From the IMG/VR virus record IMGVR_UViG_2617270960_000012: a stretch of DNA of 4,848 bases. The stretch is one strand, 5' to 3'. Below the pieces are notes generated by a model. It saw only the letters and a program-made list of their open reading frames with translations. It ran no database searches and was not told where the DNA came from. This document shows positions 1-4,647 of this stretch, in pieces; position 1 is the first letter of the stretch; each line of letters opens with the position of its first letter. A program made the translations under genes and the position numbers. The stretch comes from a virus (taxonomy: Duplodnaviria; Heunggongvirae; Uroviricota; Caudoviricetes).

Positions 1-504
1 TTATTGATAGTGTTTTATGTTCAGATAATGCCCGATGATTTTGTCATGCAGCTCCACCGATTTTGAGAACGACAGCGACTTCCGTCCCAGCCGTGCCAGG
101 TGCTGCCTCAGATTCAGGTTATGCCGCTCAATTCGCTGCGTATATCGCTTGCTGATTACGTGCAGCTTTCCCTTCAGGCGGGATTCATACAGCGGCCAGC
201 CATCCGTCATCCATATCACCACGTCAAAGGGTGACAGCAGGCTCATAAGACGCCCCAGCGTCGCCATAGTGCGTTCACCGAATACGTGCGCAACAACCGT
301 CTTCCGGAGCCTGTCATACGCGTAAAACAGCCAGCGCTGGCGCGATTTAGCCCCGACATAGCCCCACTGTTCGTCCATTTCCGCGCAGACGATGACGTCA
401 CTGCCCGGCTGTATGCGCGAGGTTACCGACTGCGGCCTGAGTTTTTTAAGTGACGTAAAATCATGTTGAGGCCAACGCCCATAATGCGGGCTGTTGCCCG
501 GCAT
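1..504 (-). CDS. insB: IS1 transposase InsB frame; normally expressed as an InsAB' fusion by -1 ribosomal frameshift
   Basis: The 167-aa ORF from the track matches IS1 InsB along its length (…[18 protein letters not shown]…[39 protein letters not shown]…). The stop codon is at the window edge (1-3 reverse complement). Confidence 0.9.
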
Positions 505-696
505 CCAACGCCATTCATGGCCATATCAATGATTTTCTGGTGCGTACCGGGTTGAGAAGCGGTGTAAGAACTGCAGTTGCCATGTTTTACGGCAGTGAGA
601 GCAGAGATAGCGCTGATGTCCGGCGATGCTTTTGCCGTTACGCACCACCCCGTCAGTAGCTGAACAGGAGGGACAGCTGATAGAAACAGAAGCCAC
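423..696 (-). pseudogene. insA: IS1 insA with an internal frameshift; the N-terminal zinc-finger part and the C-terminal HTH part are in different frames
   Basis: Translated from GTG at 696 (minus), the frame reads [43 protein letters not shown], then shifts and stops at 526-528. The InsA C-terminus ([33 protein letters not shown]…LKNSGRSR) appears only in another frame, fused to unrelated upstream sequence in the 423..725 track ORF. Compared with canonical IS1 as I recall it, this is a 2-bp deletion between window positions 568 and 569. The IS1 length in the window (751 + ~15) is also 2 bp short of 768. Confidence 0.6.
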
Positions 697-751
697 TGGA
701 GCACCTCAAAAACACCATCATACACTAAATCAGTAAGTTGGCAGCATCACC

Positions 752-967
752 CGCCTCTGCAAACGCTGCGACCCAATAAGCGAAATGCTTCGCTCATATA
801 AACCAGATGAACACACTAAGGACGCTATCGACTGGCTGGAAGATGATGACTGTGACTATCAGGAAAAAGCCGCTGAATGGTTCTGGGATGCAATAACCAA
901 AAGAGTTAAGGCTGAATATGCCTTCGCAATATTCAAACGCAGACACATTTTTGGAGAAGCAGCATGA
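752..967 (+). pseudogene. 3' remnant of a phage early gene truncated by the IS1 insertion; product unknown, possibly the partner of recT
   Basis: The frame of the 785..967 track ORF stays open with no stop back to the IS1 boundary at 752. There is no Shine-Dalgarno before the ATG at 785. Its TGA stop overlaps the recT ATG (ATGA at 964-967). Confidence 0.35.
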
Positions 968-1866
968 GCAATATCGTTGAATTCGTTAAACAGCAAGAGC
1001 AGTTATTCTGCGGAGCATTGACTGAACAGACGGTGACATGGGCTAAGGAAAGCCAGTTTGCAATTCAGTATTTCCAGAAAAATGATTACCTGGCTAAAAC
1101 GGCACTGGCAAATCCAACCAGCGCACAGAACGCCATCATCAATGTTGCGGCGATCGGCATCACCTTAAACCCGGCCAGCAAACTTGCTTATCTAGTTCCG
1201 CGCGACGGCATGGTTTGCCTTGATATCAGCTATATGGGATTACTTCACCTTGCACAGTCGACAGGATCAATTAAGTGGGGGCAATGCAAACTGGTGTACT
1301 CAAACGACACCTATGAATCAAACGGCCTTGATTCAGCACCAACCCACAAATACAACGCATTTGGTGAGCGAGGCTCTATTGTTGGTGGTTATTGCACGGT
1401 TAAAACAGCAGATGGTGACTACCTGACTGAAGAAATGAGTCTGGCAGAAATTAAAGCTGTGGAAGCAACGAGCAAGGCAAAGAATGGACCGTGGAAAACA
1501 TTCTGGGAAGAGATGGCGCGTAAAACAATAGTTAAACGCGCCAGCAAATACTGGCCTAAAGCCCAGCGACTGGATAATGCCATTCACCTGCTTAACGAAG
1601 ATGAAGGTATGCATCAGGAACCAGTTATGCCGCACAAATCAGAGGAAGATATACGCGAAGATGAACGGAAACGCCAGCAGGAAATAATGGATAAAGCACA
1701 ACTTCTTTGTGATGAAATGGCTCAAGCAGAAAACATGGATGATTTGAAGCGATATTTTGCAGAAGCATATCGCCTGACATCTGGAATGAAATTGCAGCAG
1801 AACGTACAAGCCATTTACGCAGAATGCAAAGCGAAACTGGAGGTTGCCAGTGAGCAAACTGTATGA
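964..1866 (+). CDS. recT: RecT-family single-strand annealing recombinase
   Basis: 300-aa ORF with GGAGA 6 nt upstream of ATG 964. The motif NGPWKTFWEEMARKTIVKRASKYWP matches the conserved core of E. coli RecT (NGPW..HWEEMAKKTAIRRLFKYLP). It carries a long charged C-terminal tail. Confidence 0.88.
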   Translation: MSNIVEFVKQQEQLFCGALTEQTVTWAKESQFAIQYFQKNDYLAKTALANPTSAQNAIINVAAIGITLNPASKLAYLVPRDGMVCLDISYMGLLHLAQSTGSIKWGQCKLVYSNDTYESNGLDSAPTHKYNAFGERGSIVGGYCTVKTADGDYLTEEMSLAEIKAVEATSKAKNGPWKTFWEEMARKTIVKRASKYWPKAQRLDNAIHLLNEDEGMHQEPVMPHKSEEDIREDERKRQQEIMDKAQLLCDEMAQAENMDDLKRYFAEAYRLTSGMKLQQNVQAIYAECKAKLEVASEQTV

Positions 1867-2343: not shown

Positions 2344-2658
2344 ATGAAAAAGACTCCATGGGAGAAATGGGAAGTCGATTTCTTGCGCGAAGTAGCGGCG
2401 ACAATGCCAGTTGAAGTTATCGCTGAAAAACTGGAAAGGACTGAAAAAGCAGTAATAGCAAAAGCAACAAGGATTGGCGCTGACATTGTTAGCCGACTTC
2501 GTGGAAGACGCTGGACAAGAGCCGAAGTATCACTTTTCGGTAAGTTCTCCGCAGAAGAAATAGCAATTGCAACCTGCCGCTCAATTTATTCAGTGAGAGC
2601 TATGCGATACAAGCTAAAAAAACTCGATGAAGAGAGAACAGGCATACGAATAAATTAA
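2344..2658 (+). CDS. Small protein with two tandem helix-turn-helix-like repeats (sigma-70 region 4 / Myb-like pattern); putative DNA-binding regulator
   Basis: 104-aa ORF with an internal duplication: [12 protein letters not shown]…[24 protein letters not shown] and [39 protein letters not shown]. No obvious Shine-Dalgarno before ATG 2344. Confidence 0.55.
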
Positions 2659-2674
2659 CAAAGAGGAATTTACC

Positions 2675-2842
2675 ATGAGAGGACTTGCATACAATCCCGG
2701 CATTCTTCCGGCAGAAATGATTATTCGCCAACGCGTAAAGCCAATGCCATCGAGAGAAGAATTGCTTAAGAGAAAGAGTTTCGGTTCTGTTAATGACAAC
2801 AAATATCTGAATGCGATGTGGCGCAAAGGAGGCAACCAGTGA
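2675..2842 (+). CDS. Small basic hypothetical protein (55 aa), not in the supplied ORF track
   Basis: ATG 2675 follows AAGAGGAA (2661-2668). Translation is [55 protein letters not shown]. Its TGA stop (2840-2842) overlaps the GTG start of the next gene (GTGA). Confidence 0.5.
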
Positions 2843-2843
2843 G
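2827..2843 (+). repeat. Copy 1 of an exact 17-bp direct repeat aggaggcaaccagtgag (Shine-Dalgarno plus GTG start module)
   Basis: Identical 17-mer at 2827-2843 and 3068-3084. It extends to 20 bp with one mismatch (t/c at 2844/3085). Confidence 0.85.
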
Positions 2844-3093
2844 TAATTCAGCACGACTACAGCTTGGTTTTTCACCGCTATCAAAAACTATCATGCTGGC
2901 AAAAATGCGCGATGTTGAAGGTGGACGTATGCGCGTTGGCAATGATCCAGGTCGTGATGTTACCAATGAGGCTGCTCAATTGGTGTGGCGACTGGTCATG
3001 GCTGAAGGTGGTGAGATCGCGTGGGAGCTGGATGATGGTTCTCGCATGGTGTTGAAGGCAGAAAAGCAGGAGGCAACCAGTGAGCAAGATTGA
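2839..3093 (+). CDS. Hypothetical small protein (84 aa)
   Basis: GTG 2839 follows AGGAGG (2827-2832, 6-nt spacer). Same frame as the track ORF 2818..3093. The gene body is flanked by two copies of an exact 17-bp repeat. It overlaps the next gene's start by 14 nt. Confidence 0.55.
3068..3084 (+). repeat. Copy 2 of the exact 17-bp direct repeat aggaggcaaccagtgag
   Basis: See copy 1. Spacing between copies is 241 bp. Each copy contains the ribosome-binding site and GTG start of the gene that follows it. Confidence 0.85.
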
Positions 3094-3793
3094 TTATCAG
3101 GCACTGCGTGCTAAGGCAGAAAAAGCAACGTGTGGTGTATGGTCGCTCGAATATGGAGAGAGCCGATTTGATGGTGATGATGCGCTAATTCATCGTGAAG
3201 TTGCTGGATATATTCCCATTTGCAGAATTGAAGGAGCGCATCCAGAAAGCGGTTTCGATGAAGATTTCCAAATGGAACAGCAGGCCAATGCTGAATTCAT
3301 CGCAGCAGCCAGTCCAGCTACCGTGCTGGCACTACTGGATGAACGGGAAAGAAACCAGCAATACATCAAACGCCGCGACCAGGAGAACGAGGATATTGCG
3401 CTTACGGTTGGGAGGCTGCGCGTTGAGCTGGAAGCAGCAAAAAAGCGCATAGCAGAACTGAAAGCCGAACCTGTAAGCCAAACTTACAAGTTGAACCAGC
3501 TATCGGGCAATTCTCCGGTAACTCCGGATGGTTGGATAAGCTGTAGTGAGCGGATGCCTGTAATTGGCGAGCTAAATTGGAGAACTAGTTTTCCTTTACT
3601 GGTTACGTGTGAGATCGGCGTTATACCTGCTTATTACGGCTTTGTGAGAGTTAATGGGAATAAGCATTATGGTTTTATGGAGAGTCTTAAATATGGAGAT
3701 GATAGCGGCAACCATCCTCAAACTAATGAATATGACCTGATTAGCAATGTAACCCACTGGAGCCGCTGCCAGAACCGCCGAGCAGGATGGTGA
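3080..3793 (+). CDS. Ea22-like prophage protein with a C-terminal DUF551-like domain
   Basis: 237-aa ORF starting at GTG 3080 after AGGAGG. The N-terminus [16 protein letters not shown] resembles Ead/Ea22-like proteins of enterobacterial prophages. A central coiled-coil-like stretch (RLRVELEAAKKRIAELKA) is followed by a C-terminus (GWISCSERMPV…NVTHW…) resembling DUF551. Confidence 0.65.
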   Translation: MSKIDYQALRAKAEKATCGVWSLEYGESRFDGDDALIHREVAGYIPICRIEGAHPESGFDEDFQMEQQANAEFIAAASPATVLALLDERERNQQYIKRRDQENEDIALTVGRLRVELEAAKKRIAELKAEPVSQTYKLNQLSGNSPVTPDGWISCSERMPVIGELNWRTSFPLLVTCEIGVIPAYYGFVRVNGNKHYGFMESLKYGDDSGNHPQTNEYDLISNVTHWSRCQNRRAGW

Positions 3794-3883: not shown

Positions 3884-3946
3884 TGACCAAGGCAGCAGCA
3901 GAGCGCAACTAACAATCCTCGCACTGACGGGGATTTCTTTTATCTG

Positions 3947-3971
3947 AACTCGCTACGGCGAGTTTTGTTTT
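3947..3971 (+). terminator. Intrinsic (Rho-independent) terminator-like hairpin
   Basis: Perfect 7-bp stem aactcgc / gcgagtt with loop tacg, followed by the T-rich run ttgtttt. Confidence 0.5.
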
Positions 3972-3984
3972 ATGGAGATGATAA

Positions 3985-4152
3985 ATGCACTTCCGAGTCA
4001 CAGGTGAATGGAATGGAGAACCATTCAACAGAGTTATCGAAGCAGAGAACATCAACGACTGCTATGACCACTGGATGATATGGGCGCAGATAGCACATGC
4101 AGACGTAACCAATATTCGAATTGAAGAACTGAAAGAACACCAAGCCGCCTGA
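3985..4152 (+). CDS. Small acidic hypothetical protein (55 aa)
   Basis: ATG 3985 follows GGAGA (3974-3978, 6-nt spacer). Translation is MHFRVTGEWNGEPFNRVIEAENINDCYDHWMIWAQIAHADVTNIRIEELKEHQAA. Terminator-like hairpins lie on both sides. Confidence 0.55.
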   Translation: MHFRVTGEWNGEPFNRVIEAENINDCYDHWMIWAQIAHADVTNIRIEELKEHQAA

Positions 4153-4167
4153 TGGCGGTTTTTTATT
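4142..4167 (+). terminator. Intrinsic terminator-like hairpin overlapping the stop codon of the 55-aa gene
   Basis: Stem aagccgcc / ggcggttt (8 bp with one G-U pair), loop tgat, followed by ttttatt. Confidence 0.45.
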
Positions 4168-4178
4168 GGAGACAAGAA

Positions 4179-4523
4179 ATGTCAGATTTGGCTATGAAGG
4201 TTTTGAAATGGCAATCGACTGGCGATGTCGGCATCAGTAGCGCAACTCTTGCCTCAATCGCATGTGGCCTGAAAAAGAATATCTATGGTCATCACTTCGG
4301 CGCTCCGCATGACGCAGCCGATTTCCGACGATGCGTTGCACTTGTTGAGCAGATTCCAGAAATCAGAGATTCATTCGACAAGGTTGCAAAGCGCGTTCCG
4401 GCATTCAAAGGCATCCTCAACGAATGGGATTCCCTCGTCGCTCTGTTGAAGTCTGAAATGAAGATACACGGAAACAAAGCACCAGAGACTTACAGAAGAA
4501 TAAGCGAGTTACGCAATGACTAA
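4179..4523 (+). CDS. Hypothetical prophage protein (114 aa)
   Basis: ATG 4179 follows GGAGA (4166-4170). It is in the same frame as the track ORF 4152..4523, whose upstream ATG lies inside the terminator hairpin and is therefore less likely. No family recognised. Confidence 0.55.
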   Translation: MSDLAMKVLKWQSTGDVGISSATLASIACGLKKNIYGHHFGAPHDAADFRRCVALVEQIPEIRDSFDKVAKRVPAFKGILNEWDSLVALLKSEMKIHGNKAPETYRRISELRND

Positions 4524-4647
4524 CCACAGCCTCACACTCGATGAGGCCTGTTCATTTCTCAAGATATCCAGACCTACCATTGCTGCATCAATGCGGCTTT
4601 TTATTGCCTGATTTGCAGGTTCGATTCCATATTCGGAGATAGCACTC

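Follow-up and report, generated by a model that had tools for sequence, protein, structure and literature searches.

We report that a 17-nt sequence found twice in a prophage-derived stretch of 4,848 nucleotides (IMG/VR record IMGVR_UViG_2617270960_000012, here called the window) is, with a probability that we put at roughly 78%, the core of a junction of about 22 nt, a patch of identity at which recombination joins genes in register. The two copies enclose an 84-aa gene of the DUF7446 family. As judged by comparison with its relatives, this gene is a 241-bp promoterless single-gene cassette with the junction at both ends, and the window would show in its "filled" form a slot that related prophages have empty or occupied by other genes. 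The original prediction, made from the letters of the window, had read the arrangement as a modular gene insertion or deletion at a conserved boundary of a mosaic lambdoid phage, and the empty site, the 23 contexts of the cassette and the 252 junctions described below support it.

The window has a 100% match in the chromosome of E. coli strain 1297KP (NZ_CM173856), where it belongs to a prophage remnant at the argW tRNA gene, flanked by intS and torI. This prophage of about 8 kb comprises intS, an EpsG-family gene, a hypothetical gene, IS1, the early-left array and torI, and as structural and lysis genes are absent, we regard it as a KplE1/CPS-53-like remnant. IS1 (insA/insB, positions 1-768, minus strand) adjoins the phage array and cuts off the start of the first phage gene (746-967, a fragment according to PGAP), which lacks its N-terminus and whose remaining 60 residues match the C-terminal part of PHROG 3486. 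The plus-strand array after IS1 is of the type of the early-left operon in lambdoid and P22-like phages. It encodes, all on this strand, RecT (964-1866), Gp157 (1850-2332), a 104-aa protein (2344-2658), a 55-aa DUF2737 protein (2675-2842; Pfam PF10930, E = 1.8e-29), the 84-aa DUF7446 protein (2839-3093; Pfam PF24233) and a 237-aa Ead/Ea22-DUF551 fusion (3080-3793; Pfam PF13935 over residues 2-126, E = 1.9e-30, and PF04448 over residues 151-227). Two small plus-strand genes, of 55 aa (3985-4152; PHROG 676) and 114 aa (4179-4523; PHROG 1229), come after the fusion gene, set apart by terminator-like hairpins, and are followed by torI.

The 17-mer, AGGAGGCAACCAGTGAG, lies on the plus strand at 2827-2843 and, in an exact second copy 241 bp further on, at 3068-3084. 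The copies are as exact as predicted, and the extended match holds at 19 of 20 positions (2827-2846 against 3068-3087; repeat family D1). A chance repeat is ruled out by the expectation of 0.01 matches with up to three mismatches allowed, and by the finding of two copies in none of 200 shuffles. The 17-mer had also been proposed to form the initiation region of two consecutive genes, and this is what we find, with GTG 2839 as the start of the 84-aa ORF and GTG 3080 as that of the 237-aa ORF: each copy contains AGGAGG and, after a spacer of 6 nt, the GTG with which the following gene begins. At the left boundary (CGCAAAGGAGGCAACCAGTGAGTAA, 2822-2846, plus strand, holding the exact 17-mer 2827-2843), the Shine-Dalgarno (SD) sequence AAGGAGG lies inside the upstream gene and is followed by the spacer CAACCA and by the DUF7446 start codon, fused to the DUF2737 stop codon as GTGA (2839-2842); the last six codons of DUF2737 are thereby the module itself (CGC AAA GGA GGC AAC CAG TGA, read as R-K-G-G-N-Q-stop). 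An overlap of stop and start codons had been claimed for both junctions, and it stands for the first and falls for the second. There, the right copy (3068-3084, plus strand) provides the Ead/Ea22-like gene with its SD and GTG start, and DUF7446 reads this copy in the other frame, as Q-E-A-T-S-E-Q-D-stop (E-A-T-S-E being the 17-mer itself), ending with a stop codon at 3091-3093, and the overlap of the two genes is thus 14 nt long. At 3081-3111 on the plus strand, the conserved 5' end of the Ead/Ea22-like gene matches the feature "bsq3; boundary sequence" of Shigella phage Sf6 (AF547987) at 29 of 31 positions, and this stretch shares the last 4 nt of the right 17-mer. No promoter- or terminator-like site was found on the plus strand between 2600 and 3200, and a search of the window for RNA families found none.

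A third, degenerate copy (TGGAGGTTGCCAGTGAGCAA, 1838-1857, plus strand, 15 of 20 positions, repeats D1 and D8) had been missed in the original prediction. It lies at the RecT/Gp157 junction, where RecT overlaps Gp157 by 17 nt and reads the copy in the frame used by DUF7446 (..E-V-A-S-E-Q..); the RecT tail ..EVASEQTV-stop resembles the DUF7446 tail ..EATSEQD-stop. The layout of the module recurs at the start of RecT (953-969, GGAGAAGCAGCATGAGCAA), as GGAG-N7-ATGAGCAA, and at the RecT/Gp157 junction (GGAGGTTGCCAGTGAGCAA), as GGAG-N7-RTGAGCAA, and the sequence of the latter junction is found again in 41 related loci. One could therefore ask whether convergent optimisation of translation gave the two genes, each on its own, a strong SD, an optimal spacer and GTGAG. 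GGAG-N7-RTGAGC/T is present at 4 of the 10 gene starts of the window, and stop/start overlaps are usual in lambdoid early operons, as with the ATGA overlaps of the nin region (PMC8022706, which cites Kroger & Hobom 1982 and Cheng et al. 1995). The module shares with these nin overlaps the tight packing and the fusion of the upstream stop to the downstream start, but differs from them in that the 17-22 nt around are also identical between junctions and in that the second junction is a 14-nt overlap. An SD and a start codon fix only about 9 nt, whereas the identity, spacer included, spans 17-22 nt. Moreover, cassette and flanking modules travel as one unit of at least 99.5% identity, and the 17-mer is at chance level in genomes at large, all of which makes convergence highly improbable.

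This chance level was established in one genome each of 185,579 species (596 Gb), which hold 65 copies of the exact 17-mer, 2 of them in Escherichia, against about 69 expected by chance (2 x 596e9 / 4^17). A generic ribosome-binding site or start context is thus ruled out, and the 17-mer is not the widespread generic start context that the original prediction had named as one finding that would refute it. Many different gene starts do carry the module, only within this phage region and in constant orientation and register.

An unbiased scan of viral contigs for the exact 17-mer returned at least 120 stretches. Among the matches listed, all 125 copies (at 117 loci) lie at gene junctions and in the same orientation relative to the genes, and most often the upstream gene ends in ..LRKGGNQ-stop or ..RKGGNQ-stop and an Ead/Ea22-like gene comes next. 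The C-terminus ..RKGGNQ-stop is also seen in full-length Ead/Ea22 proteins, one of which starts after a module and ends in ..IRKGGNQ-stop. As the module is the native 3' end of both DUF2737 and full-length Ead/Ea22, it can be regarded as the native joint of tandem ead/ea22 arrays. When one mismatch was allowed and duplicates were removed, the pool of junctions amounted to 252 distinct contexts. They join 12 upstream to 13 downstream protein clusters, family counts that are biased and redundant, as is the breakpoint histogram given below, because DUF2737, DUF7446 or the 17-mer itself served to find the relatives. In the upstream genes the module is read either as ..KGGNQ-stop, with a 4-nt GTGA overlap, or as ..EATSE.., with an overlap of 8 or 14 nt. 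This use of two reading frames, together with the retention of the spacer, places the conservation at the nucleotide level and not at that of the peptide.

The module followed by an Ead/Ea22-like start (window 3064/3068-3099) is also present in phages D6 and P1, with an exact match of 32 nt in Punavirus P1, and its presence in P1-type plasmid prophages extends the junction beyond the lambdoid and P22-like phages. Relatives of the Salmonella/Citrobacter type have a second junction variant, GGAG(G)CCGCCCAATGAGCAAC, which occurs upstream of DUF7446 in some phages and downstream of it in others. As this variant is found on both sides of DUF7446, junction sequences seem to be homogenised within phage lineages.

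The most direct evidence for a slot comes from a near-isogenic relative in which it is empty. We constructed in silico the deletion product of the window (2675-2843 joined to 3085-3330, with 2844-3084 removed) and searched for it in 5,426 complete E. coli genomes. Strain VG38-53E1 gave a single uninterrupted alignment with 412 of 415 positions identical: its DUF2737 gene is joined directly to Ea22 via one module copy, and the 241-bp gene is absent. The coupling of the 55-aa ORF to the Ea22-like gene, which had been put forward as the product of excision, therefore exists in nature. The order annotated in this strain is RecT-Gp157-hypothetical-DUF2737-Ead/Ea22, and its DUF2737 protein is identical to that of the window. 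In the BLAST comparison with the window, the first segment stops at 2846 and the second starts at 3068, the two overlapping on the same 20-nt module; as both segments share the same 20 nt of VG38-53E1, the difference is a clean indel between direct repeats. Apart from the missing 241 bp, identity between about 1644 and 3385 is 96-100% in most bins of 100 nt, with a single bin at 93%.

The filled form (at least 80% of the query) was found in 56 genomes. One genome has two more genes ahead of DUF7446 in the slot, and some genomes have there an HK97 gp37-like gene, as in HK620. In 80 viral contigs sampled via DUF2737, the gene that starts at the module is Ead/Ea22-like in 40, DUF7446 in 15 and DUF7739 (like gene 22 of Sf6) in 5, and at least 6 other genes occupy the slot in the remaining contigs. 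A search for relatives with a single copy of the 17-mer, or with other cargo between copies, had been suggested at the outset, and both kinds turned up. Nucleotide variability among 62 distinct relatives rises sharply directly after the GTGAG at the end of DUF2737, and DUF2737 is the conserved anchor gene upstream of a variable slot.

The cassette itself behaves as a moving unit. Its 224-nt interior is at least 99.5% identical to that of the window in 23 distinct contexts, six of which have unrelated DNA upstream while others have unrelated DNA downstream, and all four combinations occur. Where the module and cassette are identical at this level, the flanking 200 nt aligns at 54-62%, which is the background level. 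On the left, homology starts at CGCAAAGGAGG (2822) if the upstream gene is Ead/Ea22-like, and at GCAAAGGAGG (2823) in a locus (L281) where it follows an unrelated gene. On the right, it breaks off just past GTGAGC when the downstream gene is unrelated (locus L049), and at about 3110, the end of bsq3, when the downstream gene is a divergent Ea22 allele. In the breakpoint histogram, which comes from a biased sample, segment ends concentrate at 2820-2849 and 3060-3069. Named carriers of the cassette include the P22-like podovirus vB_EcoP-683R2, Lambdavirus PDP110P1, Salmonella phage 29485 and a pair of phages with genomes of ~108 kb. For PDP110P1 and this pair, the match to the window has its exact ends at 2822 and 3110 (query 23-311). 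The 241-bp cassette occurs unchanged in siphovirus-, podovirus- and plasmid-type prophages.

A direct repeat around a small insert, in a region that also contains IS1 and a prophage integrase gene, might be taken for the footprint of a mobile element, inserted by a transposase or a site-specific recombinase, with the 17-mer as its target-site duplication or attachment site. IS1, however, makes short duplications and is situated 2 kb away. The 241-bp unit has no recombinase gene, nor did a repeat search find any inverted repeat pairing its ends. The module is single at empty sites and, among the matches listed, it also brackets many other genes, with two exact copies 584-1058 bp apart. We therefore reject such an insertion as extremely unlikely. 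A transposon or an integron cassette was excluded on the same observations, as no inverted repeat pairs the ends, DUF7446 is the sole ORF and empty sites have single copies.

We propose that the junction CGCAAAGGAGGCAACCA-GTGAG is how genes are normally joined in the ead/ea22 ("ea") accessory array, a part of the early-left operon in E. coli lambdoid, P22-like and some plasmid-type prophages. At the level of mRNA, it would provide a strong SD, AAGGAGG, 6 nt ahead of a GTG that overlaps or just precedes the upstream stop codon. Because of this position of the GTG, the promoterless genes of the array could be translated from the common pL transcript by coupling or re-initiation, and we infer that the module drives translation in this manner. 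At the level of DNA, the module ends many unrelated genes and, at Ea22 genes, runs on into the conserved bsq3 5' end, and the partners in an exchange may be co-resident phages or prophages, or two copies within one genome. The exchanges themselves would proceed by homology-guided recombination at the module, via RecA or an annealing recombinase of the phage, for example RecT, whose gene lies 1 kb upstream. As a counterpoint, the copies in the window share only 17-20 nt, which is less than the ~30 bp given as a lower limit for recombination by Red-beta (PMC3945230). Many exchanges probably use longer homology, provided by DUF2737 on one side and by the module and bsq3 on the other; if this is so, the module may mark only the point where homology ends.

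The shortness of this identity, for Red-beta as for RecA, would also fit an account in which joints are made at random by illegitimate recombination, the survivors being those at gene ends that leave translation intact, and the module is passively inherited. Consistent with such a filter by selection, the module belongs to the coding part of the upstream gene and shows no higher conservation than the remainder of DUF2737: extra purifying selection was not seen on the left copy, whose third-position entropy is 0.30 against 0.22 in the rest of the gene. The 3' end of the E. coli DUF7446 gene, too, resembles a microhomology join within AGGAGGC. Random joints are nevertheless expected to give differing junctions, yet the same ~22 nt, including the unconstrained CAACCA, join 12 to 13 families in exact register and in two frames, and the empty site is a single copy free of any scar. 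On balance we find the passive account unlikely. The locus is an unusually clean and countable case for the debate on lambdoid mosaicism, in which short conserved linkers are opposed to selection-filtered random joints. This debate becomes experimentally approachable here, through a defined junction of 17-22 nt, a near-identical pair of filled and empty forms, an unchanged 241-bp cassette and at least 12 alternative cargo genes.

One might speculate, beyond the recombination at an identity patch that we favour, that the module (17-22 nt) and bsq3 together constitute a recombination linker that has itself been selected, and that the ea region is an integrase-free cassette array, although we hold this stronger proposal to be rather doubtful. 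The bracketed genes would then be excised, captured and swapped in register by a phage annealing recombinase (RecT here, Erf or Sak4 in relatives) encoded just upstream in the same operon. Small circles might be formed, as has been shown for the PeSL cassettes of T4-type phages, and the tolerance of two frames and the disordered, dispensable protein tails would be adaptations.

Recombination at short conserved patches is a familiar notion for lambdoid phages. Clark et al. (2001) proposed, for HK620, that boundary sequences are foci of recombination by which modules are assorted (summarised in PMC3029335). Like them, as described there, the module is short, conserved and placed at early-region boundaries amid unrelated flanking DNA. 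In our comparison it is conserved between phages whose adjoining DNA is unrelated, and it lies in the early region, with RecT/Erf/anti-RecBCD genes upstream of it in the window, in Sf6, in HK620 and in the prophages. Mosaic breakpoints coincide with it, as seen in the histogram, although this derives from a biased sample, and in the exact breakpoints in relatives. It differs from the lambdoid boundary sequences in serving also as the SD/start signal and as the C-terminal codons of the upstream genes in two frames. The Sf6 record annotates boundary sequences bsq1-3, of which bsq3 covers the 31 nt of the Ea22-like gene that directly follow the A of its start codon; the 17-mer, by contrast, is located upstream of bsq3 and carries no annotation of its own in Sf6. 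The DUF2737 homolog of Sf6 ends with the module (one mismatch) and is followed by a different gene, and the Ea22-like gene has another leader. The boundary-sequence principle of lambdoid mosaicism is already known, and the present locus appears to be a particularly clean instance of it, not a new kind of system.

The PeSL cassettes, which were described in T4-type phages, that is, in lytic myoviruses (Arbiol et al. 2010, PMC2839356), consist of a promoter and terminator stem-loops, and their mini-circles have been demonstrated. They share with the module a repeated expression signal around non-essential ORFs of variable regions, and recombination between copies explains insertions, deletions and replacements among close relatives (PMC2839356). 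The signal of the module is, however, translational (SD/start), without promoter or terminator, and circles are known for PeSLs. A PeSL-type cassette was accordingly rejected, as the repeat found here is an SD/start signal without a sigma-70 promoter or a terminator stem-loop.

The DUF7446 cassette has in common with a moron that it is an extra gene between genes that are adjacent in relatives. Morons of lambdoid phages were reportedly described by Juhala and colleagues in 2000. A moron is an ORF flanked by a promoter and a terminator, in the wording of PMC3029335. The DUF7446 cassette is not one, because it has no promoter or terminator of its own within 2600-3200 and depends on the operon transcript. 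PMC3029335 also gives, for the Cluster I mycobacteriophages Island3 and Brujita, an indel bounded by repeats of ~50 bp and ascribed to general recombination. There, as here, close relatives differ by an indel bounded by a short direct repeat, but that case is a single instance with ~50 bp, whereas the module has 17-22 nt and is reused at hundreds of junctions.

The cargo belongs to DUF7446 (Pfam PF24233) with 67.1 bits against a gathering threshold of 24.1, over profile positions 2-70 of 70. The original prediction had called the 84-aa product uncharacterised, and its function is indeed given as "unknown" in both Pfam and PHROG (PHROG 1578). The family is a narrow one of enterobacterial phages, with 38 representatives at 50% identity. 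PADLOC gave no match to a defence system among the six proteins encoded at 2344-3793, 3985-4152 and 4179-4523, and no solved structure was matched by DUF7446 by sequence or profile. A weak lead for the protein is PC4-like, which would point to binding of single-stranded DNA. An AF2 model from a diverse alignment reached a pLDDT of 87.9 (57 for the last residues) and has three strands, a short bridge, a helix and two strands; the model from a shallow alignment, at 54.7, was unusable.

The 3' end of the cargo gene bears on the origin of the right copy. The conserved DUF7446 domain ends near ...VLKAEKQE, and the tail ATSEQD comes from the right module and the first Ea22 codons, read in the other frame. 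In Salmonella, Citrobacter, Enterobacter and Klebsiella the homologs have, for the most part, 81 aa; they end in ..KAEKQEAAQ-stop, with CAGGAGGCCGCCCAATGA and an ATGA overlap. In the 84-aa form of E. coli (CAGGAGGCAACCAGTGAGCAAGATTGA), the native end runs through AGGAGGC and is followed by the Ea22 leader, one base shorter, which causes the frame shift and the ATSEQD tail. The E. coli end of the gene thus has the look of a join made within AGGAGGC. The tail varies among members of the family and has little order in the model, which fits a by-product of the joint. The last ~35 residues of the domain are also found as the C-terminus of larger proteins, of 240-338 aa. In one homolog (P0142) the middle of DUF7446 is read in an alternative frame, corresponding to the window ORF 2864-3055, and this is probably a frameshifted copy.

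The two genes at the end of the window look more like separately terminated units, unlike the module-linked genes upstream. Plus-strand hairpins with T-runs, similar to terminators, lie at 3914-3965, 4142-4161 and 4582-4597, so placed that two of them flank the 55-aa gene and another comes after the 114-aa gene. In all, 12 terminator-like sites were observed against 3.7 expected, and two of them have a GC-stem plus TTTTTATTG in common (repeat D7). At 3080-3793, PGAP annotates just a pseudogene fragment, the Ead part. Homology of the Ead/Ea22-DUF551 gene to the near-isogenic VG38-53E1 extends to about 3440, and breaks at 3440-3450 and 3500-3560 are seen in many alignments, which suggests additional mosaic joints within this gene.
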